32,000 nt of DNA from Flavobacteriaceae bacterium (GTDB lineage: Bacteria > Bacteroidota > Bacteroidia > Flavobacteriales > Flavobacteriaceae). The stretch is taken from positions 4,980,001 through 5,012,000 of the forward strand of contig OZ245049.1 in assembly GCA_965224465.1 (NCBI GenBank). The letters are read 5' to 3'. The notes beneath the pieces were generated by a model. It worked only from the letters and a program-made list of their open reading frames with translations, was not told the origin of the DNA and did not search any database. This document shows positions 10,127 to 32,000 of the stretch, piece by piece; position 1 is the stretch's first letter; each line of letters opens with the position of its first letter. A program made the position numbers and the translations under genes.

Positions 10127-10146
10127 TAGAATTCTAATTATTATTA

Positions 10147-11677: not shown

Positions 11678-11692
11678 AATGTCTAACCAAAT

Positions 11693-13501: not shown

Positions 13502-14012
13502 GGGTGTTTATCAACTGAAATAATAATTCGTCTTTATAGGTGTTTTTTGTGTAGATCCAATCTTTCTTGCATCCTACTTCTTTGAATTTTTTTTGTGTAA
13601 ATAATTGGATGCTATGGTCGTTGTCTGTAGTAATGTTTGCATAGAGTTGATGTAATTGTAGTTGGTTAAAACTATACGAAATCAATAGGTCCAAAGCTTC
13701 ACTAGCATGTCCTTGATTTTTAAATTTTGGGAGTATAATAATTCCGATACCTGCTCTGTGGTGTAGTGGCTCAAAATCAAAAAGATCAATCATGCCTATG
13801 GGAGTATTGTTCAAGTCAATGACAAAACGTAGTTGCTGTGCTTCAAAAATACTTTGATGAGCATTGGAGATGTACTGTTTTAAAATATGTTTTGAAAAAG
13901 GACTTACTGTACCACTTATTTCCCAAAAATCTTGATTGTTTTCTGTATCAAATAAAAAGGGTAGATCTTCTGGTTCTAAAGCGCGAAGTTTGATGTTTTT
14001 TCCGTGTAACAT
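13494..14012 (-). CDS. GNAT-family N-acetyltransferase (RimJ/RimL-like)
   Basis: It is 172 aa, and HRAGIGIIILPKFKNQGHASEAL is an acetyl-CoA-binding (motif A-like) segment. It overlaps mltG by 8 nt, which indicates an operon. Confidence 0.7.
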   Translation of the reverse strand: MLHGKNIKLRALEPEDLPFLFDTENNQDFWEISGTVSPFSKHILKQYISNAHQSIFEAQQLRFVIDLNNTPIGMIDLFDFEPLHHRAGIGIIILPKFKNQGHASEALDLLISYSFNQLQLHQLYANITTDNDHSIQLFTQKKFKEVGCKKDWIYTKNTYKDELLFQLINTHE

Positions 14013-14016
14013 ATGT

Positions 14017-14796: not shown

Positions 14797-14943
14797 TCGG
14801 ACAAATATACTAAAAATAGGAATAATTTTTGAGGTCTATGTGCTGTTCCTTTATATTTTGTTAAATTCAGTTAAGGTTTAGTTAACTGTAGTTAAAGATA
14901 ACTATTGAAGTATTTTAAGGCCTACTTTTGAGAAGGAATGTGA

Positions 14944-16362
14944 ATGGATTATAAATCCCTAAAATATAATATTATGAAGAAAATTGGAGAAATGTTGTTG
15001 GTTTCTATGTTAGGAGGTGCACTTACTCTTGCTGCATACGTTACGTTAGTGGATGGTGATACTTCATCTATCGAAGAAGTCAATCATTCAGAACAGGTCA
15101 ATCATCAAGTAAAGACTAATTTTAACCCTAGGGCTGTGGCTTCTTTTGAGAATACAGATTTCACACATGCAGCAGAGAAAACATTAAATGCTGTGGTTCA
15201 TGTAAAAAACACGGCTATTAAGACGTATTCAGATCCTTTTACCGAATATTTTCATGGAGGATCAAATGGTTTACAAAAAAGAGCTCAAATTGGTACGGGT
15301 AGTGGCGTTATAATTTCAGCAGATGGGTATATTATCACAAATAATCATGTGATTGATAATGCTACAGAAATTGAAATTACAATGGATAATAAAAAAACAT
15401 ACATTGCGGAATTGATAGGAACTGATATTAAAAATGATATTGCGCTGGTAAAGATAAAAGGAACTGATTTCCCGTATATTACTTTTGGAAATTCCGATGA
15501 TGTAAAAGTGGGAGAATGGGTATTGGCTGTTGGAAATCCTTACAATCTTACCTCAACCGTTACTGCAGGTATTATTAGTGCAAAAGGTCGTGATTTGAGT
15601 GGTAATTCCTCCATAGATTCTTTTCTGCAAACAGATGCTGCCGTAAATCCAGGAAACAGTGGAGGTGCTTTGGTAAATGTTCGTGGAGAGTTGATAGGGA
15701 TTAACACAGCAATTTCTTCACAAACGGGGTCGTTTATTGGCTATTCTTTTGCAGTACCTTCTAATATTGCCAAAAAAGTGATAGAGGATATTATGGAATA
15801 CGGTACAGTGCAACGTGCGTTGATTGGTATTTCTTACAGTACGCGTGGTAATGATCATTTTGAAGGTGTGAAAATTGGTGAAATTACTCCCAATGGAGGT
15901 GCTGATTTAGCGGGTTTAATTAAAGATGATATTATTACAAGAATCAATGAGGTGAAAATTACAGAATTCTCAGATTTAAGCGGTCAATTGAGTGCAAAAA
16001 GACCTGGGGATAGTGTAGAAGTGACTTTTTTGAGAAACGGTAAAGAATTGTCAAGAACAGTAATATTGACAAAAAACAATTTTAAGGAATTAAAAATATT
16101 AGGATTGATATTAAAGGATGTTGATAAGAAAGAAGGGAAGAAGAATGGTATAAATGGAGGCGCTAAAATTGCATCGGTCTCCAATAAAGACTTGGTGAAT
16201 TTAGGCGTAGAAAAAGGGTTTATCATTGTAAAAATAAATAAAAAAGAAGTGAGAAGTGCAGATGATGCCATTCAAATTATTTCTAGTAAATACGGAAAAG
16301 AAGTGATGTACATAGAAATGTTGAACAACCGTGGGCAAATAGAAAGGTATGTATTTAGATAA
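14944..16362 (+). CDS. htrA: HtrA/DegP/DegQ-family periplasmic serine protease with PDZ domain(s)
   Basis: The catalytic motifs TNNHV (His), NDIALVKI (Asp) and GNSGGAL (Ser) are present, with PDZ-like C-terminal repeats. The true start may be the second ATG at 14974 (MKKIGEMLLV... signal anchor). Confidence 0.9.
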   Translation: MDYKSLKYNIMKKIGEMLLVSMLGGALTLAAYVTLVDGDTSSIEEVNHSEQVNHQVKTNFNPRAVASFENTDFTHAAEKTLNAVVHVKNTAIKTYSDPFTEYFHGGSNGLQKRAQIGTGSGVIISADGYIITNNHVIDNATEIEITMDNKKTYIAELIGTDIKNDIALVKIKGTDFPYITFGNSDDVKVGEWVLAVGNPYNLTSTVTAGIISAKGRDLSGNSSIDSFLQTDAAVNPGNSGGALVNVRGELIGINTAISSQTGSFIGYSFAVPSNIAKKVIEDIMEYGTVQRALIGISYSTRGNDHFEGVKIGEITPNGGADLAGLIKDDIITRINEVKITEFSDLSGQLSAKRPGDSVEVTFLRNGKELSRTVILTKNNFKELKILGLILKDVDKKEGKKNGINGGAKIASVSNKDLVNLGVEKGFIIVKINKKEVRSADDAIQIISSKYGKEVMYIEMLNNRGQIERYVFR

Positions 16363-16385
16363 ATTGATTGATTATAATAGCTAGT

Positions 16386-16421
16386 AAAAAGTCCTTTCCA
16401 TTTTGGAGAGGATTTTTTTTT
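16386..16421 (+). terminator. rho-independent terminator after htrA
   Basis: The stem is tcctttcc / ggagagga (one G.T pair) with a 5-nt loop, followed by a run of 9 T. Confidence 0.7.
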
Positions 16422-16515
16422 GAAACATGCAGCGAAAACGTTTGAAATAGCTACTTTTGCCGAAAAACAACATTAATCGTCATTCCTATGAAAGTGGGAA
16501 TGTAAAACTCAAACA

Positions 16516-17955
16516 ATGCAAAACACGGAAGTTTACGAAAAAGAACTTGCTTTTCAAGCCAAACGCAGAAGAGCAACCGTTAATTTTATTAAAATTATTA
16601 GCGACTTTTGGTATGATGATACCATCGAATTGATTTTATTTAGAAACCAATTGCTCGATAGAAATGTGAGTGAAATTTTATCCTTGCTAGAATACGCAGG
16701 TGATTTTGTAGAGAAGCCTATTTCAATTTTTGATGCTTTGGAAATGGCGAATGCTATTAAAAAAATAAATTTACCTCCTGCCAAATTAGATATTGGTAAA
16801 TTGGTGTATGAGTTTCATTCAAGCCAGTCTTCCATCGGTGTTTTTATTGAAGGGAAGTTGAGCGGAGCTAAAAAAGCCAATGGATTTGAGCCTAGAGACG
16901 TTGTGCTTTATGGTTTTGGACGTATCGGACGCTTATTGGCTCGTGAGTTAATGACAAGGACGGGAAAAGGAAACTTGATGCGTTTAAGAGCTATTGTTAC
17001 ACGTGGTGAAATTACAGAAACTGTTTTGGAAAAACGTGCAGCATTGCTAAGAGACGACTCTGTTCATGGTGATTTTAGAGGGACAGTACAGACCAATATA
17101 GAAAAGAAAGCGCTTATTATCAATGGAACTACAGTTTATATTATTTCAGCCGATAAGCCAGAAGAGATAGATTATACCCAATACGGTATTCATAAAGCTT
17201 TGATTTTGGATAATACAGGGGTATTTAGAGATAAAGAAGCGCTGAGTAGACATCTAAAATCTAAAGGTGCAAGTAAAGTTATATTGACGGCGCCAGGGAA
17301 AGGAGTTCCAAATATAGTGTACGGAGTGAATCATTTAGAACACTCTCCGGATAACGTTGATATTTTTTCTGCGGCTTCTTGTACTACCAACGCTATTGCG
17401 CCAATATTGAAAACGATAGAAGAGAGTTTTGGAATAGAAAACGGGCATTTAGAGACGATACATGCTTATACCAACGATCAGAATTTGGTAGATAATATGC
17501 ATAGCAAATATCGTAGAGGACGTGCTGCTGCATTAAATATGGTTATTACAGAGACGGGTGCTGGAAAAGCAGTGGCTAAAGCGTACCCCATTTTAGAAGG
17601 GAAATTAACTTCCAATGCCATTCGAGTACCAGTTCCAAATGGTTCCTTGGCTATTTTAAATTTAAGGATTGTAAACGCAGCCAGTATTGAAACCGTAAAT
17701 CAAGCGGTAAAAAAATATGCATTGGAAGGAAGTTTGGTTGAACAGATTAAATATTCGAAAAGTAACGAACTGGTGTCTTCTGATATTGTAGGGGTTTCAG
17801 CACCATCTATCTATGATAGTAATGCTACTATTGCTACGGCAGATGGTAAAAGTATTGTGCTGTATGTTTGGTACGATAACGAATATGGATATAGCCATCA
17901 AGTAATGCGTTTGGCGCGCTATGTTTCCAAAGTAAGAAGGTTTACCTATTACTAG
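16516..17955 (+). CDS. gap: glyceraldehyde-3-phosphate dehydrogenase, long form with ~130-aa N-terminal extension
   Basis: The NAD-binding motif VLYGFGRIGR and the catalytic SCTTNA motif are present, along with C-terminal WYDNEYGYS. The protein is 479 aa. Confidence 0.9.
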   Translation: MQNTEVYEKELAFQAKRRRATVNFIKIISDFWYDDTIELILFRNQLLDRNVSEILSLLEYAGDFVEKPISIFDALEMANAIKKINLPPAKLDIGKLVYEFHSSQSSIGVFIEGKLSGAKKANGFEPRDVVLYGFGRIGRLLARELMTRTGKGNLMRLRAIVTRGEITETVLEKRAALLRDDSVHGDFRGTVQTNIEKKALIINGTTVYIISADKPEEIDYTQYGIHKALILDNTGVFRDKEALSRHLKSKGASKVILTAPGKGVPNIVYGVNHLEHSPDNVDIFSAASCTTNAIAPILKTIEESFGIENGHLETIHAYTNDQNLVDNMHSKYRRGRAAALNMVITETGAGKAVAKAYPILEGKLTSNAIRVPVPNGSLAILNLRIVNAASIETVNQAVKKYALEGSLVEQIKYSKSNELVSSDIVGVSAPSIYDSNATIATADGKSIVLYVWYDNEYGYSHQVMRLARYVSKVRRFTYY

Positions 17956-18033: not shown

Positions 18034-20055
<2,022 letters not shown>

Positions 20056-21759: not shown

Positions 21760-22413
21760 ATGAATAAAAAAATAGCCCTATTTATCTTTACAAGTGTAGC
21801 ATGCATAGATATGCTCGGAATTATTCTTGAAATTGAAGTACTACGATTTGTATTTAAACCTTTAATTCTACTGTCCTTAATGGCATTGTATAAGGTAAGT
21901 ACGAGTAATGGAATACACGCTCCCTATTTATTAGCCTTGGTGTTTTCTTTTTTTGGAGATGTTTTTTTGTTGTTTCAAGGGGATTTGTTTTTTATGTTAG
22001 GATTAGGAGCTTTTTTGATAGCGCATTTGTTTTTTATCAAACTCGTAGTTTTGTGGTGGAAGGAATTTAGATTGAGAAATTTACTTTTAACGGCGGTTCC
22101 TTTTGTGTTATTGGTTACAGGTTTGATTGTGTTTTTAAGAAGTTATTTAGATGAAATGTTTGTTCCTGTTGTTGTGTACGCCATGGTTATAGGTGCCTTT
22201 GGGACAGTGGCTACGATATTGTATCAGCAAAGAAAAACGAAAGCTGCATTTACCATGATGCTAGGTGCATTTGTATTTATGGTGTCAGATACCATCTTGT
22301 CTATCAATTTGTTTTACAAACCCATGATGCTGTTGAATATCTTAGTGATGTTTACGTATGTCCTAGCGCAGTACTTGATTTATAGTGCTGTTGTTTTGAA
22401 ACAGAAAATCTAA
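21760..22413 (+). CDS. YhhN-family (lysoplasmalogenase/TMEM86-like) integral membrane protein
   Basis: The 217-aa protein is hydrophobic almost throughout. It has the FSFFGDVFLL and GAFVFMVSDTILS motifs typical of YhhN. Confidence 0.75.
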   Translation: MNKKIALFIFTSVACIDMLGIILEIEVLRFVFKPLILLSLMALYKVSTSNGIHAPYLLALVFSFFGDVFLLFQGDLFFMLGLGAFLIAHLFFIKLVVLWWKEFRLRNLLLTAVPFVLLVTGLIVFLRSYLDEMFVPVVVYAMVIGAFGTVATILYQQRKTKAAFTMMLGAFVFMVSDTILSINLFYKPMMLLNILVMFTYVLAQYLIYSAVVLKQKI

Positions 22414-22518
22414 AATTCAGGGGGCTAGACTTCGAAATAGAAAATAGTCTTTGGGGAATTTACATCGGACTCTTGAGGTGAAGTTGTTGCTTGGGAAACT
22501 GAATGGATTCTATGGGTA

Positions 22519-22588
22519 ATCCTTAGAGTTTTCGCCTAACTAAAACAAAAAATAATTCCATTTCTAAACCGTCACTTGGAAATGTATT
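22519..22588. repeat. intergenic repeat copy C (partial), abutting the first RHS cassette
   Basis: The segment atccttagagttttcgcctaactaaaacaaaaaataattccatttctaaaccgtcacttggaaatgtatt aligns with the 3' halves of copies A and B. Confidence 0.75.
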
Positions 22589-22595
22589 TTATAAG

Positions 22596-23786
22596 TTGCA
22601 AAAAACGATCATTGAAAAAAATACTCCAAATGCACTTACCCAATATGTAGGTAATTATGTGTGTAAGAATAATGAATTACAATTCTTTAATCATGCCGAA
22701 GGCTATGTAGAACCAGTCATTGCGAGCGGTAGCGCGGCAATCTCATTCTTTAACTATGTGTACCAGTACAAAGACCATTTAGGGAATATCAGACTGTCAT
22801 ACACAGATGCAGATGGGAATGGGACAATTAAACAGGATGAGATTATTGAAGAAAATAATTATTATCCCTTTGGACTTGAACATAAAGGATACAATAATGT
22901 TGTCAATGGTGCGGAAAACAACTACTACAATTATAACGGGAAAGAGCTTAACGAATCTTTAGGTTTGAATTTGTTAGAATATGAAGCGAGAAGTTATGAT
23001 CCAGCTATAGGAAGATGGACGAGTGTTGACCCGTTAGCTGATAAGTATTATAAATTTAGCCCTTATGTTTATGTTGGTAATAGTCCTACAATAGCAGTCG
23101 ACCCAGATGGAAAAAGAATACTATTTGTAAATGGATATTGGAATAGTTGGATTGGAGGTCTTATAGGTTCAAGTAATCTAGGTAAGAAATACTGGGGAAG
23201 TGGATTTACAAGTGCTGCTCAAAGATTTTTTGGAGATTATTCATCTGTTTCTGATTCTAATTATATTGATGGTTCTTCATCTTTTGGAGGAGATTCAAGT
23301 GGTGGCGGTAGAGAAAAAGATGGATATGCATATGCTAAAGCAAATTATACTACATTAACAGATGGTTTAGCAGAAGATGAAACCTTTAAACTTGTCACTC
23401 ATAGTGAAGGAGGTGCATATGGAGCAAGAGTTGCGAGATATCTAATAGAGAAAGGACATACCGTAGAAACCGTTCTACATTTATCTACAGATGAAGGAGA
23501 CGAATTCGAAACACCTGAAGAAGCAGATACTTATCAATTAAGTTATGGTGGAGATTGGGTAACTGGAAATAAAGAAATCAGTAAAGGTGTTGATATTATT
23601 GGTGTAGTTGATAAATATGAGAAGAAATCAGACAAAAATAAGTATGCTCACGGTTCTACTAAAGGTTCATCTGTGTTTAAGTCTGCCAAAGCTTTATTAA
23701 AAGCAGCAGCGTCAGGAGCGACAGGTGTTAATGTAACTGAAACAAAAAGTGGAATTAAATTTGAATTTATAAGAGATAATAATTAA
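22596..23786 (+). CDS. orphan RHS C-terminal fragment 1: RHS core plus alpha/beta-hydrolase (lipase/esterase-like) toxin domain
   Basis: The RHS core motifs YVYQYKDHLGNIRLSYTD, NNYYPFGL, RSYDPAIGRWTSVDPLA and the cleavage-type VDPDGK (23100..23114) are present. Downstream lie ILFVNG, the nucleophile elbow VTHSEGGAYG (Ser codon 23403..23405) and AHGS. The only start is a TTG, and the fragment lacks the upstream YD repeats, so it may not be translated. Confidence 0.75.
   Translation: MQKTIIEKNTPNALTQYVGNYVCKNNELQFFNHAEGYVEPVIASGSAAISFFNYVYQYKDHLGNIRLSYTDADGNGTIKQDEIIEENNYYPFGLEHKGYNNVVNGAENNYYNYNGKELNESLGLNLLEYEARSYDPAIGRWTSVDPLADKYYKFSPYVYVGNSPTIAVDPDGKRILFVNGYWNSWIGGLIGSSNLGKKYWGSGFTSAAQRFFGDYSSVSDSNYIDGSSSFGGDSSGGGREKDGYAYAKANYTTLTDGLAEDETFKLVTHSEGGAYGARVARYLIEKGHTVETVLHLSTDEGDEFETPEEADTYQLSYGGDWVTGNKEISKGVDIIGVVDKYEKKSDKNKYAHGSTKGSSVFKSAKALLKAAASGATGVNVTETKSGIKFEFIRDNN
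22638..22915 (+). repeat. conserved cassette block, copy 1 (3' half only)
   Basis: It aligns from TQYVGNY onward. Together with cassette 3 it shares the extension NVVNGAE beyond KHKGYN. Confidence 0.85.
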
Positions 23787-23790
23787 AAAG

Positions 23791-24105
23791 ATGACTAATA
23801 TTAGTAAAAACACTTATTTAACGGTTAATATTATACTGGTACTATTAGGTGCATATATTGTGTATTTTATATCCAATTTTTGGATTGGTAGCCAAGACCA
23901 ACACGAGATGGTTATTGACAACTCGGGAGTATCTTTTTTCTTTAAGAAGTTTGTTCTTAATTTAGCGGTAATAGCTCTTATAATAGGCTTTATGGCTATA
24001 GTTAATAAATTGCTTAAAAATAATAATATAAAAAAGACTTTATTATATAGTACTATTCTACTTATTGTATTGTCAATAGTAGCAATATCTTTTTCAATGA
24101 GTTAA
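23791..24105 (+). CDS. small 3-TM membrane protein, candidate immunity protein for cassette 1
   Basis: It is 104 aa with three hydrophobic helices. It starts 4 nt after the toxin stop and is followed by a strong terminator. Confidence 0.55.
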   Translation: MTNISKNTYLTVNIILVLLGAYIVYFISNFWIGSQDQHEMVIDNSGVSFFFKKFVLNLAVIALIIGFMAIVNKLLKNNNIKKTLLYSTILLIVLSIVAISFSMS

Positions 24106-24127
24106 TGTTTAAAATAATATTTATAAT

Positions 24128-24156
24128 AAAAAGCCACTCTTCGGAGTGGTTTTTTT
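24128..24156 (+). terminator. rho-independent terminator after immunity gene 1
   Basis: The hairpin is gccactc ttcg gagtggt, followed by a T7 run. Confidence 0.8.
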
Positions 24157-24210
24157 ATGCTCTAAAGTAAAGCTATATTTTTATCAAAAAAATCTTTAAA
24201 CTTCATATTG

Positions 24211-24352
24211 GTAAGCCCCTGATGCCGCGCGAGTAACCGCAGCGCTACTGCGAGATTGTGTCTCGTGGCGTCAACGTTAAGACCCGAACGCGCGGACATG
24301 TCACCAACGTGATAGCGCGAGATTTGTAATCCGTGCCCTGCATGAGTAAGCC
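24211..24352. repeat. GC-rich junction modules, junction 1 (Y unit with an X unit nested in it)
   Basis: A GC-rich island of about 140 bp sits in an AT-rich background. The Y unit (gagtaaccgcagcgctactgcgagattgtgtctcgtggcgtcaacgttaag) and the X unit (cgcgcggacatgtcaccaacgtgatagcgcgagatttgtaatccgtgccc) both recur at 28622..28780. Confidence 0.8.
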
Positions 24353-24420
24353 ATACAATAGGTATAAAAGCAACCATTAAACGGATTTGTAATCGTTCTT
24401 TTAGGGAACAGTTTAATTCA

Positions 24421-24975
24421 AAAACCAAGGCAGCCATGTTGTGGTTTTTTACATGCTGGCTACACATACATTTCCCTCCTCCTCCTTGTCAAAACCTACG
24501 GATTCAAAAACGGCACAAATACAGGGGGCGAATACCTACGACAAAAACGGAAACATAATCTCCGATGCCAATAAAGGGATTAGCGCCATAACCTACAATT
24601 ATTTAAGCCTACCCGTCAAAGTAGTTTTTGGAACTAACCGTTTTATTGATTATATTTACGATGCCTCAGGTGTAAAACAACAAAAAGTAGTAACTGAGGG
24701 AAGTTCTTTAACAACCACGCAATACGTAGGTAATTATATTTATGAGAATAACAACCTTCAATTCTTTAATCATGCAGAGGGCTATGTAGAACCAGTCATT
24801 GCGAGCGGTAGCGCGGCAATCTCATCCTTTAACTATGTGTACCAATACAAAGATCATTTAGGTAATATTCGACTGTCATACACAGATGCAGATGGGAATG
24901 GGACAATTAAACAGGATGAGATTATTGAAGAAAATAATTATTATCCCTTTGGACTGAAACATAAAGGGTATAATA
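24421..24975 (+). repeat. conserved cassette block, copy 2
   Basis: It is a near-identical direct repeat of 26766..27375, 28768..29350 and 30902..31497. Its 3' half also matches 22638..22915. Confidence 0.9.
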
Positions 24976-25169
24976 ACGGAATAAGCTCTTTGGGTAACTC
25001 GGTTGCGCAACGCTATAAGTTTGGAGGAAAGGAATATGATGAGAGTTTTGATGGTACTTTAAATACCTATGATTTTGGAGCTAGGAATTATGATCCTGCA
25101 ATTGGTAGGTGGATGAATATTGACCCACTGGCTGACCAAATGCGTAGACACTCTCCGTATAATTATGCT
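24441..25169 (+). pseudogene. orphan RHS C-terminal fragment 2, truncated by IS insertion
   Basis: The YD repeats and RHS core (YDKNGNIISDANKG ... YQYKDHLGNIRLSY ... NYDPAIGRWMNIDPLA ... SPYNYA) run straight into the IS left end at 25170. The ATG conserved in the other cassettes is ATA here (24555..24557). No DPxG motif or toxin domain remains. Confidence 0.85.
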
Positions 25170-26437
25170 GGTTCTACCACGAATGTTGTGGAATTAGTAT
25201 CTTTACCTCAAAAAGATGTTTTCAACAAAACTGTTTGAGTTACTATTAAATTTAGGAACAGATTGGAAGGTTTGTGATGTAAAAGTTAATTATCTAGATT
25301 CAGAAATAGACATATTTATAGACTATATACCAACTAAAGCATCTTGTCCAGACACAGAAGAGTTGTGTAGTATTTATGATCATAGAAGCACTCGTAGATG
25401 GCGTCATTTAGACACCTTACAATTCAAAACCTACATTAATTGTAAAGTCCCAAGAGTTAAGTCAACTAAAGGCGTTAAAACGATAACGGTACCATGGGCT
25501 AGTAATTTTTATCGTCATACTTATCTATTTGAAAGGCTAACTATAGACTTATTGAAAGCAACAAAAAATCAAAGTCAAACGGCTAAACTATTACGTTGTG
25601 GCTTTAATATTGTAAACCGAATCATACATACTTCTGTAAAAAGAGGGCTTTCTAAGAGGTCAGAAAACCAAAAATTTTCTCATCTAAGTATTGATGAAAA
25701 AGCTTTCAAAAAGGGGCATAACTATGTGACTGTAGTTAGTGATCCGAGTACAGGAATTGTAATTGATGTTGCAGAAGGCAGGACTAAAAAAGAGACTAAA
25801 ATTTTACTTAAAAAGATTGTAAATGAGATAAATAGAGATGAAGTAGAGACCGTTTCTATTGACATGTGGAAAGCCTATTTATCATCAGTAAAAGAAGTTT
25901 TTCCAAATGCGAAAGTTGTCCATGATCGATTTCACTTAGTAAAGTACTTAAATGATGCTATAGATAAAGTTCGCAGACGTGAAGTGAAAAAAGAAGAAGG
26001 TCTTAAAAATAGTAGATTTGTATTGCTTAAAAATAAAGAAAACTTAACGGATAAACAAAGAGTATTATTTGACAAAATACAAGAAGCAAATTATCAAGCA
26101 AGTAAAGCATGGTTAGCTAAAGAAAATTTTAAAAATATATTTAGAAGCCCATCTTTGAAAGTTGCTTTAGGTCTTTTTATCAAATGGGGAGCAAGTGTTT
26201 TGGAAACAAAAATTAAAGAAATTATAAAGGTTGCTAAGATGTTTAATAACCATATAGAAGGGGTGTGTAATGCAATGATTGAGACTGCTTCTAATGCAAT
26301 GGCAGAAAGACTAAATGGTAAAATACAAGAAATAAAATCTATCGGTAAAGGTTACAGAACTTTCGCTAATTTTAGAAGTGCAATACTATTTTTTAATGGA
26401 GGTTTAGATTTGTACCCACACAAATCGTGGTAGAACC
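25170..26437 (+). mobile_element. ISL3-family insertion sequence (~1.27 kb)
   Basis: The terminal inverted repeats are GGTTCTACCACGAATGTTGTGG (25170..25191) and the reverse complement of 26416..26437, GGTTCTACCACGATTTGTGTGG (19/22 identical). They enclose a single transposase ORF. Confidence 0.88.
25216..26433 (+). CDS. ISL3-family DDE transposase
   Basis: The motifs IDEKAFKKGHNYVTVVSD, SIDMWKAYLSSVKEVFPNAKVVHDRFHLVKYLNDAIDKVRRRE and AERLNGKIQEIKSIGKGYRTFANFRSAILFFNG are typical ISL3 transposase blocks. The protein is 405 aa. Confidence 0.88.
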   Translation: MFSTKLFELLLNLGTDWKVCDVKVNYLDSEIDIFIDYIPTKASCPDTEELCSIYDHRSTRRWRHLDTLQFKTYINCKVPRVKSTKGVKTITVPWASNFYRHTYLFERLTIDLLKATKNQSQTAKLLRCGFNIVNRIIHTSVKRGLSKRSENQKFSHLSIDEKAFKKGHNYVTVVSDPSTGIVIDVAEGRTKKETKILLKKIVNEINRDEVETVSIDMWKAYLSSVKEVFPNAKVVHDRFHLVKYLNDAIDKVRRREVKKEEGLKNSRFVLLKNKENLTDKQRVLFDKIQEANYQASKAWLAKENFKNIFRSPSLKVALGLFIKWGASVLETKIKEIIKVAKMFNNHIEGVCNAMIETASNAMAERLNGKIQEIKSIGKGYRTFANFRSAILFFNGGLDLYPHKSW

Positions 26438-26723
26438 TTATTACATTGTTAAATATGGGGTTCATAAATCAGAATTAACCCCACATATAGATTCTATTGC
26501 TTTACGGTTAAATTATAAAAAATACGGAAAAGAAAATGTGTTTTTTAATCCTAATTCAAAAAAGTTAGAAGTAATAGAAAAGAAATTTGAAATATTATAT
26601 TTAGATAAAGATAGGGTTTGGAAAATAGTTAATTATTCATCCGACATGAAATATCTTAACAGGTATTTTGGAAAAGGGTTTTCTGAGTGTATTAAATCAA
26701 ACCCTCCACTGCTGCAAGAATAA
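26438..26723 (+). pseudogene. 5'-truncated ORF remnant downstream of the IS (possibly the tail of the lost cassette-2 immunity gene)
   Basis: The listed ORF 26427..26723 starts at a GTG inside the IS right inverted repeat. The first internal ATG is near its 3' end. The stop lies inside the GC-rich junction module. Confidence 0.4.
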
Positions 26724-26780
26724 CCACCATCGCTACCGCGATATTCTATCTCGTGGCGTCAACGTTAAGCCACGCAGCAA
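26702..26780. repeat. GC-rich junction module, junction 2 (single Y unit)
   Basis: The unit aataaccaccatcgctaccgcgatattctatctcgtggcgtcaacgttaagccacgcagc is homologous to the Y units of junctions 1, 3 and 4. Confidence 0.8.
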
Positions 26781-27375
26781 TTAAAACTACTAAAACCACA
26801 GCAGAAATGTTGTGGTTTTTACATGTTGGCTACACATACATTTCCCTCCTCCTTCCTCTCCTCCTTGTCAAAACCTACGGCTTTAAAGACGGCACAAATA
26901 CAGGCAACGACTATACCTACGACAAAAACGGAAACATGATCTCCGATGCCAATAAAGGGATTAGCGCCATAACCTACAATTATTTAAACCTACCCATCAA
27001 AGTAAGTTTTGGAACTAACCGTTTTATTGATTATATTTACGATGCCTCAGGAGTAAAACAACAAAAAGTAGTAACTGAGGGAAGTTCTTTAACAACCACG
27101 CAATACGCAGGTAATTATATTTATGAGAATAACAACCTTCAATTCTTTAATCATGCAGAGGGCTATGTAGAACCAGTCATTGCGAGCGGTAGCGCGGCAA
27201 TCTCATCCTTTAACTATGTGTACCAATACAAAGATCATTTAGGTAATATTCGACTGTCATACACAGATGCAGATGGGAATGGGACAATTAAACAGGATGA
27301 GATTATTGAAGAAAATAATTATTATCCCTTTGGACTTAAACATAAAGGGTACAATAATGTCGTGAATGGTGCGGA
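26766..27375 (+). repeat. conserved cassette block, copy 3
   Basis: It is a direct repeat of the other cassette blocks, and the differences are mostly third-codon-position changes. Confidence 0.9.
26796..26820 (+). terminator. terminator-like hairpin plus T-run inside junction 2
   Basis: The hairpin ccacagca gaaa tgttgtgg (8 bp, one G.T pair) is followed by T5. The same element occurs at 28798..28823 and 30931..30956. Confidence 0.6.
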
Positions 27376-28258
27376 AAGTAAGTACAAATACCACGGAAAA
27401 GAGCATCAAGAAGAATTAGGTTTAAATTGGTACGATTATGGAGCAAGGAATTACCAACCTGATATTGGAAGATGGTTTAATCCAGATCCTTTAAGTGATG
27501 AGTTTCCAGAATGGTCACCTTATAACTTTGTTAAAAATAATCCTTCTTTTTATATCGACCCAACAGGATTAGCACCTGAAACTATTTATGAAGATATAAA
27601 TAGTGGAGAAACAGTTGAAGTAGATGATGGTATTGACAAGACTATAAAAGTTAATAGTTCTAATTTTCAGAAAGCGAAATCTTTTGCTAATGAAATCAAT
27701 TCCAATCCAGATGCAAATGGTATGACATCTATTGGTGTTAGTAGAGATGTAGCTGATGGATATAATGAGTTTTATAATAGTGTTAACTCTTATGATGGTT
27801 TTAGTTTATCAAACTTATATGATTATGCTTTTGTCCAACCTGAACTAACTGTTACAGGAGAAGTTACAGGTTCAGCAGGTGCTTTAGAATATGTTTCTGT
27901 TGGTGTAGGTGGTTTTATCTTAAAAAGTTTAGGAAATAACCTTGCAAGAAATAGTTCAAAAATATTGAATTTCACTTCGAAACAATTACAAGCTAAATTT
28001 AAACATGCAGTAGATTTTGGTGTAAAAGGAAGTTGGAATAAAGGAGCAGGTAGTAAATTTAGTTCAGTTATTAACCAACATATTAATTCTTCGAGTGTTC
28101 AAATTATACAAGGAACTTATAGAGGTAATCCTGCAGTTCATTATTTAAATTCGAAATCTGGATTAAATGTAATTGCAAATCCAAATGGAACTTTTGTTAG
28201 TGGGTGGAAACTTAATTCTAAACAATTAGAAAATGTAATTAAGCATGGAGGATTATAA
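26936..28258 (+). CDS. orphan RHS C-terminal fragment 3: YD repeats plus RHS core plus colicin-D-like (tRNase-type) toxin domain
   Basis: It starts at the conserved ATG (MISDANKG), and the frame is also open upstream to 26753. The RHS core ends at IDPTGL (27557..27571). The C-terminal ~110 aa (QLQAKFKHAVDFGVKG ... IQGTYRGNPAVHYLNSKSGLNVIANPNGTFVSGWKLNSKQL) resembles my recollection of the colicin D nuclease family. Confidence 0.8.
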   Translation: MISDANKGISAITYNYLNLPIKVSFGTNRFIDYIYDASGVKQQKVVTEGSSLTTTQYAGNYIYENNNLQFFNHAEGYVEPVIASGSAAISSFNYVYQYKDHLGNIRLSYTDADGNGTIKQDEIIEENNYYPFGLKHKGYNNVVNGAESKYKYHGKEHQEELGLNWYDYGARNYQPDIGRWFNPDPLSDEFPEWSPYNFVKNNPSFYIDPTGLAPETIYEDINSGETVEVDDGIDKTIKVNSSNFQKAKSFANEINSNPDANGMTSIGVSRDVADGYNEFYNSVNSYDGFSLSNLYDYAFVQPELTVTGEVTGSAGALEYVSVGVGGFILKSLGNNLARNSSKILNFTSKQLQAKFKHAVDFGVKGSWNKGAGSKFSSVINQHINSSSVQIIQGTYRGNPAVHYLNSKSGLNVIANPNGTFVSGWKLNSKQLENVIKHGGL

Positions 28259-28270
28259 AATGATTAAAAA

Positions 28271-28510
28271 ATGAAAGCAGAAAAAATTAAAAATAATATA
28301 TCAATTGAATTATCTAAAGAAGAAGCCATTGTTTTTCTAAATTGGTTATTTACATTCAATGAAAAAAAGCATCCTGATTTATTTCAAGACCAATCAGAAG
28401 AAAGGGTACTATGGGATATTGAAGCAACATTGGAAAAAGCTGTAGATGAAACTTTTAGCAATAATTATAACAATATATTATCAGAAGCAAGAAAAAAAGT
28501 AAGAGATTAA
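28271..28510 (+). CDS. small acidic protein, candidate immunity protein for cassette 3
   Basis: It is 79 aa, Glu/Asp-rich and has no signal peptide. It lies 12 nt after the toxin stop. The size and charge fit a cytoplasmic nuclease inhibitor. Confidence 0.55.
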   Translation: MKAEKIKNNISIELSKEEAIVFLNWLFTFNEKKHPDLFQDQSEERVLWDIEATLEKAVDETFSNNYNNILSEARKKVRD

Positions 28511-28621
28511 CTATTGCTTTTACCAGTTTTTTATTGTGCTGATTTTTGAGTTAAGTCAGCTTTAAAGACAAAAGTAAGTAAGTATTATAAAGCAGAACTT
28601 GACGCAATCAAGAAAATGAAA

Positions 28622-28780
28622 TCCCGATGGCGCGGACATACCGCCCACGTGATAGCGCGGATTTGCAATCCGTGCCCACAAAGTGCGTCACGTAAGGTTG
28701 CTCCCCCCGCTGCCGCGTGAGTAACCGCAGCGCTACCACGTAGATTGTATCTCGTGGCGTCAGAGAGTAAGCCACGCAGC
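28622..28780. repeat. GC-rich junction modules, junction 3 (X unit then Y unit)
   Basis: The X unit is ggcgcggacataccgcccacgtgatagcgcggatttgcaatccgtgccc. The Y unit is gagtaaccgcagcgctaccacgtagattgtatctcgtggcgtcagagagtaagccacgcagc. The order is the opposite of junction 1. Confidence 0.8.
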
Positions 28781-29350
28781 AATTAAAACTACTAAAACCA
28801 CAGCAGAAATGTTGTGGTTTTTTACATGCTGGCTACACATACATTTCCCTCCTCCTCCTCCTTGTCAAAACCTACGGATTCAAAGACGGCACAAATACAG
28901 ACAACGACTATACCTACGACAAAAACGGAAACATGATCTCCGATGCCAATAAAGGGATTAGCGCCATAACCTACAATTATTTAAACCTACCCACCAAAGT
29001 AAGTTTTGGAACTAACCGTTTTATTGATTATATTTACGATGCCTCAGGTGTAAAGCAACAAAAAGTAGTAACTGAGGGAAGTTCTTTAACAACCACGCAA
29101 TACGCAGGTAATTATATTTATGAAAATAACAACCTTCAATTCTTTAATCATGCAGAGGGCTATGTAGAGCCAGTTATTGCGAGCGGTAGCGCGGCAATCT
29201 CATCCTTTAACTATGTGTACCAATACAAAGACCATTTAGGGAATATCAGACTGTCATATACTGATGCAGATGGGAATGGGACAATTAAACAGGATGAAAT
29301 TATTGAAGAAAATAATTATTATCCCTTTGGACTGAAACATAAAGGGTATA
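28768..29350 (+). repeat. conserved cassette block, copy 4 (homology with copy 2 continues to ~29510)
   Basis: It is a direct repeat. The extra ~160 bp (SSLGNSVAQRYKFGGKEYDESFDGTLNTYDFGARNYDPAIGRWMNIDPLA) is shared only with cassette 2. Confidence 0.9.
28798..28823 (+). terminator. terminator-like hairpin plus T-run inside junction 3
   Basis: The hairpin is ccacagca gaaa tgttgtgg, followed by T6. Confidence 0.6.
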
Positions 29351-30294
29351 ATTTTAATACATCTTCTTTAGGGAATTCGGTAGCGCAACGCTATAAGTTT
29401 GGAGGAAAGGAATATGATGAAAGTTTTGATGGCACTTTAAATACCTATGATTTTGGAGCAAGGAACTATGATCCTGCAATTGGTAGGTGGATGAATATTG
29501 ACCCGCTTGCGGAATTAATGATGACATATAGTCCTTATAATTATGCATTTAATAATCCGATTTATTATATTGATTCAGACGGAATGTCGCCCTATAATTC
29601 GGTAATTAAGTCTGATTATTATAGAGATAAGAACAACAATGTATGGTATGATTCTAATGTTTTTGGCCCTAGTGATGTTCCTAATGGAGGGACTTATATG
29701 GGACCCACATATTATGATGAAATAAATGGAACATTTTGGGATGTAAATGGGGATCCTCACACTAGAGTGCAGGCTTTAAATGAAGTAGTTGTAACAGGAA
29801 CATCTTCTAGTGCTTTTACTATTTATGGAATCGGTACAGATACTTCAGTAGAAAAATCTAGTGGTTTTACTACTCATGGGGCTGGTACAGATACTTCAGG
29901 TAGAGAGGGTATTACTACTCATGGAATAGGTTATGATGATTTTACTCCTTTAGGTGGCGGAGGTAAATCAAGTTCTGTTTTAGCTCAAATTTTAAGATTT
30001 ATTAGTGGTTTATTCTCAACGGTAAATAATGTAAATAAAGTATTTGAACCTAATGTGTCTACAATGGAGAACATTGAAAAAGAGGAATCAAAGAAAACAC
30101 CAGGAAATGTGAAAGTTGTTTTAAAACATTATCTAAAATCATTTCATAAAAAAGATGGAATGGGCAATGTTTTTCATAAAATTGATTCTATAGTTCGAGA
30201 TACTGTTGAAATTAAAACTTTTAACATAGAGAAAACAAAAGATTCAGTTAGAAATCAAAATGCAAATAGAAAAAGGAGAGTAAGAGAATGGTAA
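28933..30294 (+). CDS. orphan RHS C-terminal fragment 4: YD repeats plus RHS core plus C-terminal domain of unknown type
   Basis: It starts at the conserved ATG (MISDANKG). The RHS core ends at IDSDGM (29572..29586). The ~235-aa C-terminus has three tandem [FI]T[IT][YH]G[IA]G[TY]D[TD] motifs, a Gly run, a hydrophobic helix and a Lys/Arg-rich tail. I recognise no catalytic motif. Confidence 0.8.
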   Translation: MISDANKGISAITYNYLNLPTKVSFGTNRFIDYIYDASGVKQQKVVTEGSSLTTTQYAGNYIYENNNLQFFNHAEGYVEPVIASGSAAISSFNYVYQYKDHLGNIRLSYTDADGNGTIKQDEIIEENNYYPFGLKHKGYNFNTSSLGNSVAQRYKFGGKEYDESFDGTLNTYDFGARNYDPAIGRWMNIDPLAELMMTYSPYNYAFNNPIYYIDSDGMSPYNSVIKSDYYRDKNNNVWYDSNVFGPSDVPNGGTYMGPTYYDEINGTFWDVNGDPHTRVQALNEVVVTGTSSSAFTIYGIGTDTSVEKSSGFTTHGAGTDTSGREGITTHGIGYDDFTPLGGGGKSSSVLAQILRFISGLFSTVNNVNKVFEPNVSTMENIEKEESKKTPGNVKVVLKHYLKSFHKKDGMGNVFHKIDSIVRDTVEIKTFNIEKTKDSVRNQNANRKRRVREW

Positions 30295-30317
30295 TTTTAA
30301 TTAAAAAAAACATAATT

Positions 30318-30830
30318 ATGTATAAATATTTTTATTCATTTATCCTAGCATTAGTTATTGTTATTGGCTGTAATAATAGAAACCCCAGCATTAAAGAATC
30401 TAATATAAAAAGTGAAGAAGTAGTAAAATCTAATAATTCATTCCAAATTATTGAAAAGAAAAAAACAGAGTACAATGAGTATATAGGATTGATTGAGTTA
30501 AGTGACACTATATATATTGGAAAGAACGTTGGAAAAATTGTTAATTATAAGCCAAGAAGGAGTGATATCGATTATTTATTATCAGTTATTATTGAAAACG
30601 AATATGATAATGGCAGAATAGTTAAAGATACATTTAGTGATGGCACATTAGCCCCTTGGTTTGGGGTCTATGCAAACAAGATTGGTTTCAAAAAAATTAG
30701 AGGGACTATTTTAGAAGAAGCTCTGAATGACGATAAAAGTAAATTTGATAGCGTTTTACGAATTGAAAGAACTTTTATTCATTTCGTAAAAGAAGTGTAT
30801 GTAATGGATAGTATTTTCAGGGTAGAGTAA
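30318..30830 (+). CDS. lipoprotein, candidate immunity protein for cassette 4
   Basis: The internal start MYKYFYSFILALVIVIGC gives a signal peptide with a lipobox Cys. The listed start at 30288 overlaps the toxin stop (ATGGTAA) and is the alternative start. Confidence 0.55.
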   Translation: MYKYFYSFILALVIVIGCNNRNPSIKESNIKSEEVVKSNNSFQIIEKKKTEYNEYIGLIELSDTIYIGKNVGKIVNYKPRRSDIDYLLSVIIENEYDNGRIVKDTFSDGTLAPWFGVYANKIGFKKIRGTILEEALNDDKSKFDSVLRIERTFIHFVKEVYVMDSIFRVE

Positions 30831-30835
30831 GCATA

Positions 30836-30907
30836 CCTCCCCGTTGGTGCGCGAATAACCGCCATCGCTATTACACGAATCTTTCATGTAGTGTCCACGA
30901 GTAAGCC
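30836..30907. repeat. GC-rich junction module, junction 4 (single, more diverged Y unit)
   Basis: The unit is cctccccgttggtgcgcgaataaccgccatcgctattacacgaatctttcatgtagtgtccacgagtaagcc. Confidence 0.7.
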
Positions 30908-31497
30908 AACAAGCAATTAAAACAACAAAACCACAGCAGTAAGCTGTGGTTTTTTTATATGTTGGCTACACATACATTTCCCTCCTCCTCCTTGTCATTT
31001 CCATAAAGGAAAGACAAAACCTACGGATTCAAAGACGGCACAAATACAGGCAACGTATACCTACGACAAAAACGGAAACATGATCTCCGATGCCAATAAA
31101 GAGATTAGCGCCATAACCTACAATTATTTAAACCTACCCGTCAAAGTAGTTTTTGGAACTAACCGTTTTATTGATTATATTTACAATGCCTCAGGAGTAA
31201 AACAACAAAAAGTAGTAACTGAGGGAAGTTCTTTAACAACCACGCAATACGCGGGTAATTATATTTATGAGAATAACAACCTTCAATTCTTTAATCATGC
31301 AGAGGGCTATGTAGAACCAGTTATTGCGAGCGGTAGCGCGGCAATCTCATCCTTTAACTATGTGTATCAATACAAAGACCATTTAGGGAATATCAGACTG
31401 TCATACACAGATGCAGATGGGAATGGGACAATTAAACAGGATGAAATTATTGAAGAAAATAATTATTATCCCTTTGGACTGAAACATAAGGGGTATA
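30902..31497 (+). repeat. conserved cassette block, copy 5
   Basis: It is a direct repeat of the other blocks. It contains a 19-bp palindromic insertion (atttccataaaggaaagac) after the CCT tract and a 2-nt deletion near 31055. Confidence 0.9.
30931..30956 (+). terminator. terminator-like hairpin plus T-run inside junction 4
   Basis: The hairpin ccacagc agtaa gctgtgg is followed by T7. The loop differs from junctions 2 and 3, and the G.T pair is now G-C, so the stem is preserved. Confidence 0.6.
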
Positions 31498-32000
31498 ATA
31501 CTAACATAAATGGAAGGTATCATAAATATGGTTTTAGTGGTAAAGAAGAGCAAGATGAACTAGGTCTTGGCTGGATTGATATTACTGCTAGGAATTATGA
31601 TGCTGCTTTGGGTAGATGGATGAACATTGACCCATTAGCAGAAAAAATGCGTAGACATAGTCCATATAATTATGCATACAATAATCCTATTTTCTTTATT
31701 GACCCTGATGGAATGGCACCTGTAGATTGGTATATTGACAGAAGAACAGGTAAGGTTCTTGGGCAAGATGGTGCATCAACGAATAATTTAAGGGTTATTG
31801 ATAAACGTGAATGGGACGGCGTAAAGGAAGATCACGGAGGTAGTATTTCTACTGCAGCGACAAAAGAACTTCAAGATAATAGTAAATTAATAACAGTTAA
31901 TGAATCGCAAATTCAAAATGAGGTTCAATCTGTTGCTGATGACACAAAAAGTGAAGGATTCGAAAATCAAGCGTTTATAACATTAAATGTGAATTCAGGA
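31080..32000 (+). CDS. orphan RHS C-terminal fragment 5 (3' end beyond the window), with a further distinct C-terminal domain
   Basis: My own translation from the conserved ATG at 31080 is open to the window end (307 codons). It reads MISDANKEISAITYNYLNLP ... YQYKDHLGNIRLSY ... ARNYDAALGRWMNIDPLA ... FFIDPDGM (31701..31715), then unrelated sequence (APVDWYIDRRTGKVLGQDG...). The ORF track does not list it because it has no stop in the window. Confidence 0.8.
   Translation, partial: MISDANKEISAITYNYLNLPVKVVFGTNRFIDYIYNASGVKQQKVVTEGSSLTTTQYAGNYIYENNNLQFFNHAEGYVEPVIASGSAAISSFNYVYQYKDHLGNIRLSYTDADGNGTIKQDEIIEENNYYPFGLKHKGYNTNINGRYHKYGFSGKEEQDELGLGWIDITARNYDAALGRWMNIDPLAEKMRRHSPYNYAYNNPIFFIDPDGMAPVDWYIDRRTGKVLGQDGASTNNLRVIDKREWDGVKEDHGGSISTAATKELQDNSKLITVNESQIQNEVQSVADDTKSEGFENQAFITLNVNSG

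Follow-up and report, generated by a model that had tools for sequence, protein, structure and literature searches.

The junction block and its copies

The DNA analysed here is a stretch of 32,000 nucleotides from a Flavobacteriaceae bacterium (contig OZ245049.1, positions 4,980,001 to 5,012,000), referred to below as the window. Five Rhs C-terminal cassettes (C0 to C4), all on the + strand and all 5'-truncated, span window positions 22596-32000. The subject of this study, a 155-base stretch at 28781-28935, is the repeated spacer between these cassettes at the junction before C3. The block opens with a hairpin and its T-run; a lineage-specific spacer of 23 nt comes next, then the CCT tract, and finally 66 nt of YD-repeat coding sequence in decay, at the end of which stands an ATG. 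At this junction (junction 3) its parts are the following:

28794-28823, + strand: intrinsic-terminator-like hairpin with A4, an 8-bp stem CCACAGCA/TGTTGTGG containing one G.U pair, a GAAA tetraloop and T6
28794-28797, + strand: A-tract (A4)
28798-28805, + strand: 5' arm of the hairpin, CCACAGCA
28806-28809, + strand: hairpin loop, GAAA
28810-28817, + strand: 3' arm of the hairpin, TGTTGTGG
28818-28823, + strand: T6 run
28824-28846, + strand: 23-nt spacer, ACATGCTGGCTACACATACATTT, containing the "-7-like" box TACATTTC and an out-of-frame ATG
28847-28861, + strand: CCT tract, (CCT)5, 15 nt
28862-28866, + strand: TTGTC, which together with the CCT tract marks the joint where Rhs homology starts
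28867-28932, + strand: decayed YD-repeat coding remnant (KTYGFKDGTNTDNDYTYDKNGN), with its frame intact here
28933, + strand: ATG, 66 nt past TTGTC

The block precedes four of the five window cassettes. After the hairpin, the window junctions read ACATG[CT]TGGCTACACATACATTT, CCT tract, TTGTC, 64-66 nt and GACAAAAACGGAAAC-ATG. The three other copies have the following particulars:

24420-24557, + strand: junction 1 block, with a degraded hairpin, a 12-nt CCT tract, a 2-nt deletion and ATA (24555-24557) for ATG
26792-26938, + strand: junction 2 block, with a T5 run and an imperfect 21-nt CCT tract that arose through a 12-nt-period duplication
30927-31082, + strand: junction 4 block, with a 7-bp all-Watson-Crick stem, an AGTAA loop, T7, a 12-nt CCT tract, a 19-nt fold-back insertion and a 2-nt deletion

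An earlier note on this DNA had described a hairpin of the form AAAA-CCACAGC(A)-loop-(T)GYTGTGG followed by T5-T7 in junctions 2, 3 and 4, and it had placed this hairpin correctly. Its further descriptions were also verified, namely that junction 4 has another loop and replaces the G.T pair by G-C with the stem kept, that the junction 1 hairpin is degraded (it folds at only -10.1 kcal/mol), and that the length of the CCT tract differs per copy (12, 21, 15 and 12 nt in junctions 1 to 4, with the 19-nt fold-back insertion in junction 4). The same note had placed the block in front of every cassette, which is true of C1 to C4 but not of C0, where the cut point is another and there is no block. 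Likewise, the ATG restart that it saw in each junction is present in junctions 2, 3 and 4, but junction 1 has ATA.

A second array was found on a 15.7-kb metagenome contig of a close relative (L080), at a different chromosomal site, after an RNase T gene and without a full-length rhs directly upstream. This array holds four further copies of the block, giving eight together with those of the window. We judge it probable, with some reserve, that the studied segment is one junction-block copy of a tandem array of orphan Rhs C-terminal (Rhs-CT)/immunity cassettes in a low-GC Flavobacteriaceae genome.

A probable terminator at the module ends

The hairpins of junctions 2, 3 and 4 fold at -15.4, -15.4 and -16.0 kcal/mol, compared with -10.1 kcal/mol for that of junction 1, and 0/200 shuffles were as stable as any of the former (z = -4.9 to -5.9; z = -5.1 for junction 3). 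The hairpin of junction 4 was also flagged by a terminator scan. In the window the hairpin sits ~70-290 nt 3' of the stop codon of the upstream co-directional open reading frame (ORF), and in loci without GC-rich units it sits ~20-60 nt 3' of ORF stops. Hairpins of other genera with the same basal CCACA/TGTGG, 7-10 bp and a T-run lie directly 3' of an Rhs toxin and small-ORF module (L040, L053, L030, L056, L024, L054, L001, L013, the Poritiphilus loci L042, L061 and L077, and the Flavivirga locus L048), and some of these occur without a further cassette downstream. An exact-pattern scan of metagenomes returned 25 loci, in at least 15 of which the hairpin is 3' of an Rhs C-terminus and small ORF; in many of the 25 a convergent HTH_3 regulator gene shares it. 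Such hairpins were 5.7-fold enriched at 0.6-4.5 kb 3' of an Rhs core match (p=4e-4).

The four-base loop is of the GNRA type in 28 of 41 distinct copies, compared to ~12-17% by chance, and pair 6, as read from the sequence, forms a G.U in cassette-strand RNA, where the opposite strand would have an A.C mismatch. These two features point to a role at the level of RNA rather than DNA. In a set of 23 copies, which came from loci found through the protein and so was unbiased by the hairpin, the basal 5 bp were nearly invariant and pairs 6-8 covaried (e.g., A-U to G-C in L056). Between window and Poritiphilus junctions, homology did not reach beyond the hairpin and the few bases preceding it. Based on its fold energy, position, conservation across genera, GNRA loop and covariation, the terminator proposed in the earlier note is borne out, and the hairpin is probably a Rho-independent terminator that marks module ends. 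Rfam searches of the array and four related loci gave no match of any weight to a known RNA family.

At least one good terminator remains in every window junction. Junction 1 has a good first and a degraded second hairpin, while in junction 3 the first is eroded and the second good. The first hairpin of junction 1 is a feature of its own:

24131-24158, + strand: separate strong terminator of the first module (GCCACTC-TTCG-GAGTGG and T7), -15.1 kcal/mol

Across the 79 loci L001-L079 and the window (~1.07 Mb in all), 46 of 226 terminator-like hairpins end in GTGG just before the T-run, which suggests that a CCAC...GTGG stem base is a clade-wide preference of Flavobacteriaceae terminators.

The ATG and the YD-repeat remnant

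Read upstream of the ATG, the cassette frame encodes K-T-Y-G-F-K-D-G-T-N-T-x-N-D-Y-T-Y-D-K-N-G-N-M, which is a canonical YD repeat, and Rhs homology starts at KTYGFKDG. When homologues from 79 Flavobacteriaceae Rhs loci were compared by tblastn, the residue aligned to the ATG was Met in 61 of the 74 that were full-length or edge-cut. Because this Met is ancestral in the YD repeat, the ATG and its A-rich context, which lacks a Shine-Dalgarno sequence, are inherited coding sequence (the D-K-N-G-N codons). The ATG is kept in seven of the eight block copies, the other being the ATA of junction 1. The YD frame upstream of it is broken by a 2-nt deletion in six of the eight copies and is intact in junctions 2 and 3, so that initiation, if the cassettes are translated, would have to take place at or near this ATG. 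Positive determinants of translation start in F. johnsoniae are A-3, A-6, A-12 and A-13 (PMC6847099); the candidate start has A at -3, -11, -12 and -14, with G-6 and C-13.

Approximately 30 of the best 120 database homologues are orphan-sized proteins for which the gene caller set the start exactly at this Met, as is expected when the first ATG is taken after a cut that lies few codons upstream. Orphans of other genomes are cut at query positions 2 to 86, the cut being common within an array and differing between genomes. In those cut 3' of this Met, the first in-frame ATG is either missing or 24-191 codons in (at least 119 in 6/13), so that cassettes of this kind do not in general have a start codon at their 5' edge. 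The proposal that the ATG had evolved as a restart was not supported, given the ancestral Met, a context made of the D-K-N-G-N codons and the ATA of junction 1; the annotated start at MISDANKG is best read as an artefact of the cut point. We also considered selection for an upstream in-frame ATG, and rejected it as such an ATG is in frame in 4/8 copies, as chance predicts.

The CCT tract and the leader

Measured between ACATTT and TTGTC, the CCT tracts of the window are 12, 21, 15 and 12 nt long. Those of the L080 array are 12, 12, 15 and 36 nt long, where the longest is (CCT)12 and the 15-nt copy carries a fold-back insertion like that of junction 4. In the window, CCTCCTCCTCC occurs six times when up to one mismatch is allowed, compared to 0.12 expected, and five of the six are inside junctions. 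The tract is a genuine trinucleotide microsatellite of 12-36 nt among eight paralogous copies, and its length changes are in multiples of three because the repeat unit is 3 nt. The sole orthologous pair at hand has equal tract lengths. A phase-variable contingency locus was rejected as an explanation, since a 3-nt unit cannot shift the frame and no recognisable -33 and -7 elements flank the tract.

The leaders, from hairpin to ATG, are one per window junction:

24451-24554, + strand: leader of junction 1
26821-26935, + strand: leader of junction 2
28824-28932, + strand: leader of junction 3
30957-31079, + strand: leader of junction 4

Among the eight copies, pairwise identity is 95% in the spacer and leader and 94% in the pseudo-YD stretch, compared with 97, 97 and 93% at codon positions 1, 2 and 3 of the core. 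The leader thus has a rate of divergence close to that of third codon positions, which would be expected for sequence that is carried along by duplication and conversion. A search for the junction motif in the 79 Flavobacteriaceae Rhs loci gave one match (L038), which was coding sequence by chance. Homology to the long structured leader of Poritiphilus was not significant (219/500 shuffles score as well). An origin as the end of an insertion sequence (IS), phage or plasmid was likewise set aside: the phage search was empty, and the plasmid search matched only the GC-rich unit B described below, in a Tenacibaculum Rhs array.

Promoter motifs and expression

The earlier note had likened TACATTTC, in the spacer, to the Bacteroidota -7 box TAnnTTTG. 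It matches this box at 5/6 positions, and the window's + strand has 154 occurrences of TAnnTTT itself (4.8 per kb). An exact TAnnTTTG is not present in any window junction. No -33 element (TTTG or TTG) was found at 19-21 nt from the -7-like box, the only candidate being the T-run of the terminator (TTTT) at 19 nt; the nearest upstream TTG, as read from the sequence, is 8 nt (junctions 2 and 4) or 24-25 nt away. A Bacteroidota promoter in the spacer was therefore not borne out, since there is neither an exact -7 box nor a -33 element at the right spacing and a 5/6 match is expected by chance. A sigma-70-type promoter was also rejected, as the scan was not enriched and that consensus is not the relevant one for this phylum. 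Of the insulated transcription unit that the earlier note proposed, the terminator part stands on its folds and covariation, while the promoter motif and the evolved start are not supported; a missing motif does not by itself decide against a promoter.

In Salmonella, the main and orphan rhs genes have internal promoters and an internal (CTG) start, and these yield a toxic C-terminal product (PMC7043789). In the window, the exact -7 box TAAGTTTG is found at 25016-25023 and 29394-29401, inside C1 and C3, in both cases 461 nt past the ATG/ATA and in R-Y-K-F-G codons just before the core/toxin boundary. These boxes could be a Salmonella-like internal promoter for the downstream ORF, or could be due to chance. 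The cassettes may be either a silent stock or weakly expressed from a promoter that is yet to be recognised.

GC-rich units, regulator remnants and junctions of other genomes

Upstream of the hairpin, the junctions contain GC-rich units that resemble repetitive extragenic palindromic (REP) elements, and two contain remnants of regulator genes:

28623-28677, + strand: GC-rich unit B, a REP-like hairpin (GCGCGGATT-TGC-AATCCGTGCC) in the upstream part of junction 3
28703-28771, + strand: GC-rich unit A, REP-like (C-run, GCTACC-stem-loop-GTGGCG), ending in a GAGTAAG box at 28765-28771
24216-24353, 26700-26775, 28623-28771 and 30835-30910: units A/B of the window, hairpins with a 5' C-run and a 3' GAGTAAG/GTTAAG box
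4240-4310, 6920-6985, 9880-9925, 11925-11990 and 13880-13965 of L080: units A/B like those of the window
24145-24203, - strand: 3'-end remnant of a convergent HTH_3/XRE regulator gene (ending in MKFKDFFDKNIALL-stop; KFKDFFDKNIALL-stop), whose score was reached by 0/500 shuffles
28525-28552, - strand: second HTH_3/XRE 3'-end remnant, in junction 3

Many Flavobacteriaceae genera carry units A/B, most often at the 3' end of an Rhs module. Homologues of unit B in other Flavobacteriaceae loci have compensatory stems (CGGAAT/ATTCCG, CGGAAA/TTTCCG), and homologues of unit A in L024, L048, L012, L034 and L071 have covarying stems (CGAG/CTCG, CTAG/CTAG, CCAG/CTGG). Unit B was enriched 3' of Rhs cores on the same strand (odds ratio 15, p=0.002). 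Neither unit matched an Rfam family, and both could be either REP-like or a structured RNA not yet described. A tRNA origin of unit B, whose hairpin resembles the anticodon arm of tRNA-Cys, was dismissed as ARAGORN finds nothing.

The composite of GC-rich unit, GAGTAAG, A-rich spacer, CCACA hairpin and T-run recurs in 13 loci of several genera, and none of the junction motifs was found in 38 kb of housekeeping DNA from two related metagenome-assembled genomes (MAGs). The intact homologues of the regulator remnants are HTH_3 proteins, which in other loci are encoded directly 3' of the Rhs-module terminator. The fragments in junctions 1 and 3 are scars of a stepwise assembly in which modules brought their own 3' flanks.

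On the Tenacibaculum finnmarkense plasmid CP116296 (L106, 28009-34034), orphan cassettes (DUF4329, RHS core, AHH) lie downstream of an Rhs/DUF6531 gene. All junctions there share one order of parts: unit B, then GAGTAAG, the A-rich spacer, the hairpin CCACAAC-GCAA-GTTGTGG with its T-run, a ~100-nt leader and an ATG inside the core (ADHLGTPTSMCNEEGE). The design is that of the window, with another core family and cut point. In the plasmid leader, TTG-N20-TATATTAG is somewhat more promoter-like than the match in the window. In Poritiphilus flavus (L077 3035-3260, 5490-5715 and 13065 onward; L042 4090 onward), a conserved ~220-nt GC-rich leader is found 3' of the terminator. This leader has long-range complementarity (ACCCTTCTCCGAAGTAT ... 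ATACGGAGAAGGTGT) around several hairpins, precedes each orphan and also follows the last module, and had no Rfam match; it may be an undescribed structured RNA.

The arrays and their genomic setting

The window has a GC content of ~34%. Its cassettes and the features associated with them are:

22596-23786, + strand: cassette C0, with a 5' cut that differs from that of the other cassettes
24441-25238, + strand: cassette C1, its toxin part split by an ISL3 element at 25170-26437
26753-28258, + strand: cassette C2, with a Colicin_D toxin domain (Pfam)
28933-30294, + strand: cassette C3, an Rhs core remnant and C-terminal toxin, read from the YD-repeat Met (MISDANKG...)
31080 onward, + strand: cassette C4, running to the window end
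30288-30830, + strand: small ORF, presumed immunity gene of C3, overlapping the toxin ORF by 7 nt
25170-26437: ISL3-family IS with 22-nt inverted repeats and a transposase gene at 25216-26433, interrupting the toxin part of C1

TIGR03696 (Rhs-associated core) was matched in all four cassettes tested (C0, C2, C3 and C4), with E=2.6e-14 for C3. The C3 protein is identical to the record P0003, whose start the gene caller placed at the ATG discussed above. Several cassettes are pseudogenes. A small ORF is located 3' of each of the five cassettes, and from this position these ORFs are presumed to be immunity genes. The Colicin_D domain of C2 is the only C-terminus with a family match; the other C-termini and all the small ORFs had none, including that at 30288-30830, for which Pfam gave no match. 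An ORF beside the ISL3 element (26427-26723) may be the displaced immunity gene of C1, and the C-terminal toxin region of C3 contains a 51-nt tandem duplication (29806-29904, 1.9 copies, 83% matches).

The genes scanned upstream of the array are housekeeping genes: SusC/SusD pairs, ROK, YceG, DapF, HtrA and others among the ORFs scanned at 2850-17955, as well as a DNA ligase-like ORF (18052-20055) and a YhhN gene (21760-22413). The array comes after the YhhN gene, without a full-length rhs directly upstream. No recombinase of the XerD/IntI type was found near it in the scan of 2850-17955, which left the ORF at 16-2838 and the small ORFs at 20-21.7 kb unscanned, and none was found in the L080 array. 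An integron-like or rAID-1 array was ruled out, as neither the scanned window genes nor L080 include an adjacent recombinase. In L080, a copy of unit A stands at either end of the array, which has Y1_Tnp genes next to it. Its first cassette contains an intact IS200-type Y1 transposase gene (5178-5606), and a decayed Y1/RAYT-like gene (13965-14670) follows the terminal unit A, with an inverted unit-A-like hairpin on its far side, a REP/RAYT-like arrangement. In another locus (L081) a Y1_Tnp gene is directly 3' of the hairpin, beside a GC hairpin.

The site 3' of the YhhN (lysoplasmalogenase) gene, window 21760-22600, is variable between related genomes. In the two related MAGs (L107 3703-9500; L108 10001-12560) it holds a MutS2-like gene or ~5 kb of small ORFs, with no full-length rhs and none of the junction motifs. 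The idea of a REP element at the "empty site" of relatives was accordingly rejected, as none of the motifs was found 3' of YhhN in these MAGs. Nor was the protein search taken to mean that a full-length rhs is missing, since its best 120 homologues include no long proteins though full-length ones exist, which makes this listing a biased one.

Interpretation and alternatives

Under the reading that we favour, in which the segment is a junction copy of an orphan cassette array, the hairpin would work as RNA on the cassette strand and stop transcription from the preceding module. The spacer and (CCT)n would mark an illegitimate joint at the former cut in the Rhs core, with the length of the tract changing by replication slippage. 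The 66 nt after TTGTC are YD-repeat coding sequence that is no longer constrained, and the ATG is the ancestral repeat Met, which gene callers choose as the first in-frame ATG. The block would spread with the cassettes by homologous recombination between the ~0.5-kb conserved core segments (concerted evolution), and the same leader would stand before every block-bearing cassette in the two arrays because it travels with them in this way.

Several points weigh against this reading. Termination itself is inferred from sequence, and the near-invariant CCACA/TGTGG base exceeds the needs of a plain terminator, as does an identical 20-nt hairpin in genomes that are only ~60% identical in the Rhs core. 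The conserved stem base is partly a habit of these genomes, as indicated by the 46/226 hairpins ending in GTGG. The leader is G-poor and folds less well than its shuffles (z=+1.5), and it has 0-1 stop triplets in all three frames, a count reached by 0.1-4% of dinucleotide shuffles per copy in what was a post hoc test on copies that are not independent. Both the lack of structure and the few stops count here because passive decay predicts neither. In addition, three cassettes keep a long intact toxin and downstream small ORFs, and neither array is beside a full-length rhs. Expression of the downstream ORFs would require a promoter 3' of each terminator.

In another reading, which we hold to be rather unlikely, each cassette is an insulated unit with a terminator, a promoter in the spacer (TACATTTC being the -7 box) and a start at the A-rich ATG. 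Its product, on the same low estimate, would be an N-terminally truncated Rhs tip plus the downstream protein, as a toxin-antitoxin-like module or an immunity island, and the CCT tract might, with as little likelihood, be placed in the 5' untranslated region or at the transcription start site. Several observations speak for it: the terminators hinder read-through expression of downstream cassettes, the YD frame is broken in 6/8 copies while long ORFs begin at the ATG, the leader is unstructured, and both arrays stand alone without an adjacent full-length rhs. The ATG is also kept in 7/8 copies with A at -3, -11, -12 and -14, of which A-3 and A-12 are F. johnsoniae determinants (PMC6847099), and the Salmonella rhs genes, with their internal promoters, internal start and toxic C-terminal product (PMC7043789), offer a precedent. 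However, the junctions lack an exact TAnnTTTG, the 5/6 match is expected by chance at a TAnnTTT frequency of 4.8 per kb, and no TTTG/TTG is at 19-21 nt spacing. The ATG and its context are ancestral coding sequence in which -6 and -13 are not A, and in junction 1 the codon is ATA; near the 5' cut of other orphan arrays there is no ATG. The leader, moreover, evolves at approximately the rate of third codon positions, several cassettes are pseudogenes, and the product would be a ~440-aa Rhs tip without shell and delivery domains.

We give distinctly less credence to the block and GC-rich units being a cassette-boundary recombination element, with the arrays as pilS-like silent stores. Unit A/B, GAGTAAG and hairpin would then be a 3' homology arm or recognition site for module swaps between loci and genera, and the polypyrimidine (CCT)n mirror repeat might, at similarly long odds, form H-DNA that stimulates recombination beside the core or tunes expression. 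It is no less doubtful that Y1/RAYT-type transposases service the element and that modules are exchanged between stand-alone silent arrays, expression loci and genera, which would make Rhs the basis of a pilS-like or integron-like cassette system. The recurrence of the composite in 13 loci of several genera and at every junction of the T. finnmarkense plasmid array speaks for it, as do the conservation of the stem base in sequence, the position of the L080 array between two copies of unit A and next to Y1_Tnp genes, the absence of the motifs from 38 kb of housekeeping DNA of relatives and the uniform breakpoints within arrays. Homologous recombination in the core alone accounts for this pattern, though, and the genes scanned near the window array include no recombinase. 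The CCAC...GTGG base is common among terminator-like hairpins of these genomes, the GNRA loop and strand-specific G.U pair favour a role at the RNA level, the formation of H-DNA is pure inference, and a full-length rhs with a matching core was neither found nor excluded. It is very improbable that the leader is translated, i.e., that an upstream ATG (in the 3' arm of the hairpin or in ACATGCTGG) is fused or ATGA-coupled to the cassette; the equally remote corollary is that the CCT tract would be a poly-Ser, poly-Leu or poly-Pro linker whose frame is set by the T-run and indel variation. The 0-1 stop triplets in all three frames would fit translation, as would an upstream ATG that is in frame and open to the cassette in 4/8 copies, an upstream ORF with ATGA overlap in 2/8 and the fused ORFs made by gene callers (P0001, P0121, P0123). 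Yet with two ATGs in two frames, chance alone would put 4/8 in frame, two copies have ATA in place of the leader ATG, and the upstream ATGs are within or right after a stable hairpin. Frames vary between copies so that no single peptide is conserved, and a 3-nt repeat unit cannot switch the frame.

Comparison with known systems and significance

Arrays of orphan rhs-CT/rhsI and cdiA-CT/cdiI cassettes are known as polymorphic toxin loci (PMC3150448, PMC3967940, PMC3482391). The arrays described here resemble them in having tandem 5'-truncated core fragments with differing C-terminal toxins and a small downstream ORF each, in the conserved core that serves as recombination homology, and in that some cassettes are decayed or hit by an IS. 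They differ in that both are beside housekeeping genes with no full-length rhs immediately upstream, and in that all cassettes but the first share one cut point and one non-coding leader with a terminator. The host is a flavobacterium, in which the delivery route and expression signals differ. As a concept, the Salmonella toxin-antitoxin-like modules, in which a truncated C-terminal Rhs and an immunity protein are independent of the delivery part, are similar (PMC7043789). In Salmonella, however, the promoters lie in the coding core and were mapped by rapid amplification of 5' cDNA ends (5'-RACE) and reporters (PMC7043789), whereas the evidence here is of sequence only and includes no promoter motif in the leader. 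The counterpart of the in-frame Salmonella start upstream of the core/toxin boundary is an ATG found in 7/8 copies, which is an ancestral Met codon. The rAID-1 orphan-immunity arrays of Bacteroidales have a 5' XerD-like recombinase and contain mostly immunity genes (bioRxiv 10.1101/471110). The likeness to rAID-1 lies in arrays of Bacteroidota interbacterial-conflict genes with repetitive intergenic sequences; here, in contrast, no recombinase was found among the genes scanned and the cassettes keep full toxin domains.

The hairpin has the A-tract, G+C-containing stem, stable tetraloop and T-run of intrinsic terminators and is located 3' of a co-directional stop codon, and like bidirectional terminators it is shared with a convergent HTH_3 gene in many loci. 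Unlike ordinary intrinsic terminators, its CCACA/TGTGG base, and often the whole 20-nt hairpin, is conserved in sequence across genera, and it is usually preceded by a GC-rich REP-like unit and GAGTAAG box. REP elements are multi-copy imperfect palindromes that are associated with IS200-type Y1 transposases (RAYT). Units A/B are likewise short, multi-copy imperfect palindromes, with Y1_Tnp adjoining in L080 and L081 and none in the window, but in our limited sample they look enriched at Rhs module ends rather than genome-wide. The pilS loci of Neisseria are arrays of promoter-less, 5'-truncated silent copies with conserved flanks, located away from the expression locus. The present arrays, as putative silent stores, likewise consist of 5'-truncated copies with conserved flanks. 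Simple-sequence contingency loci are phase-variable microsatellites, and as in these the copy number of the tandem repeat differs between copies (4 to 12 units), but the 3-nt unit spares the frame and the tract is not between recognisable promoter elements.

Together, these comparisons mark the array as what appears to be a Flavobacteriaceae instance of the known polymorphic-toxin orphan cassettes, with some boundary elements unexplained. If this ordinary reading is true, the ~430-450 aa "RHS repeat-associated core" proteins starting MISDANKG are orphan cassettes, likewise many other Flavobacteriaceae ones, and a terminator walls off each cassette. The module-end signature of GC-rich unit, GAGTAAG and CCACA-stem GNRA hairpin would be usable to delimit toxin/immunity modules in flavobacteria. 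Should the boundary element instead prove to be a recombination signal, the finding of organised immunity arrays in Bacteroidales would be extended to the Flavobacteriia. If the cassettes are independently expressed, the internally expressed Rhs toxins of Salmonella would be extended to the Flavobacteriia, a class in which Rhs biology is almost unexplored.

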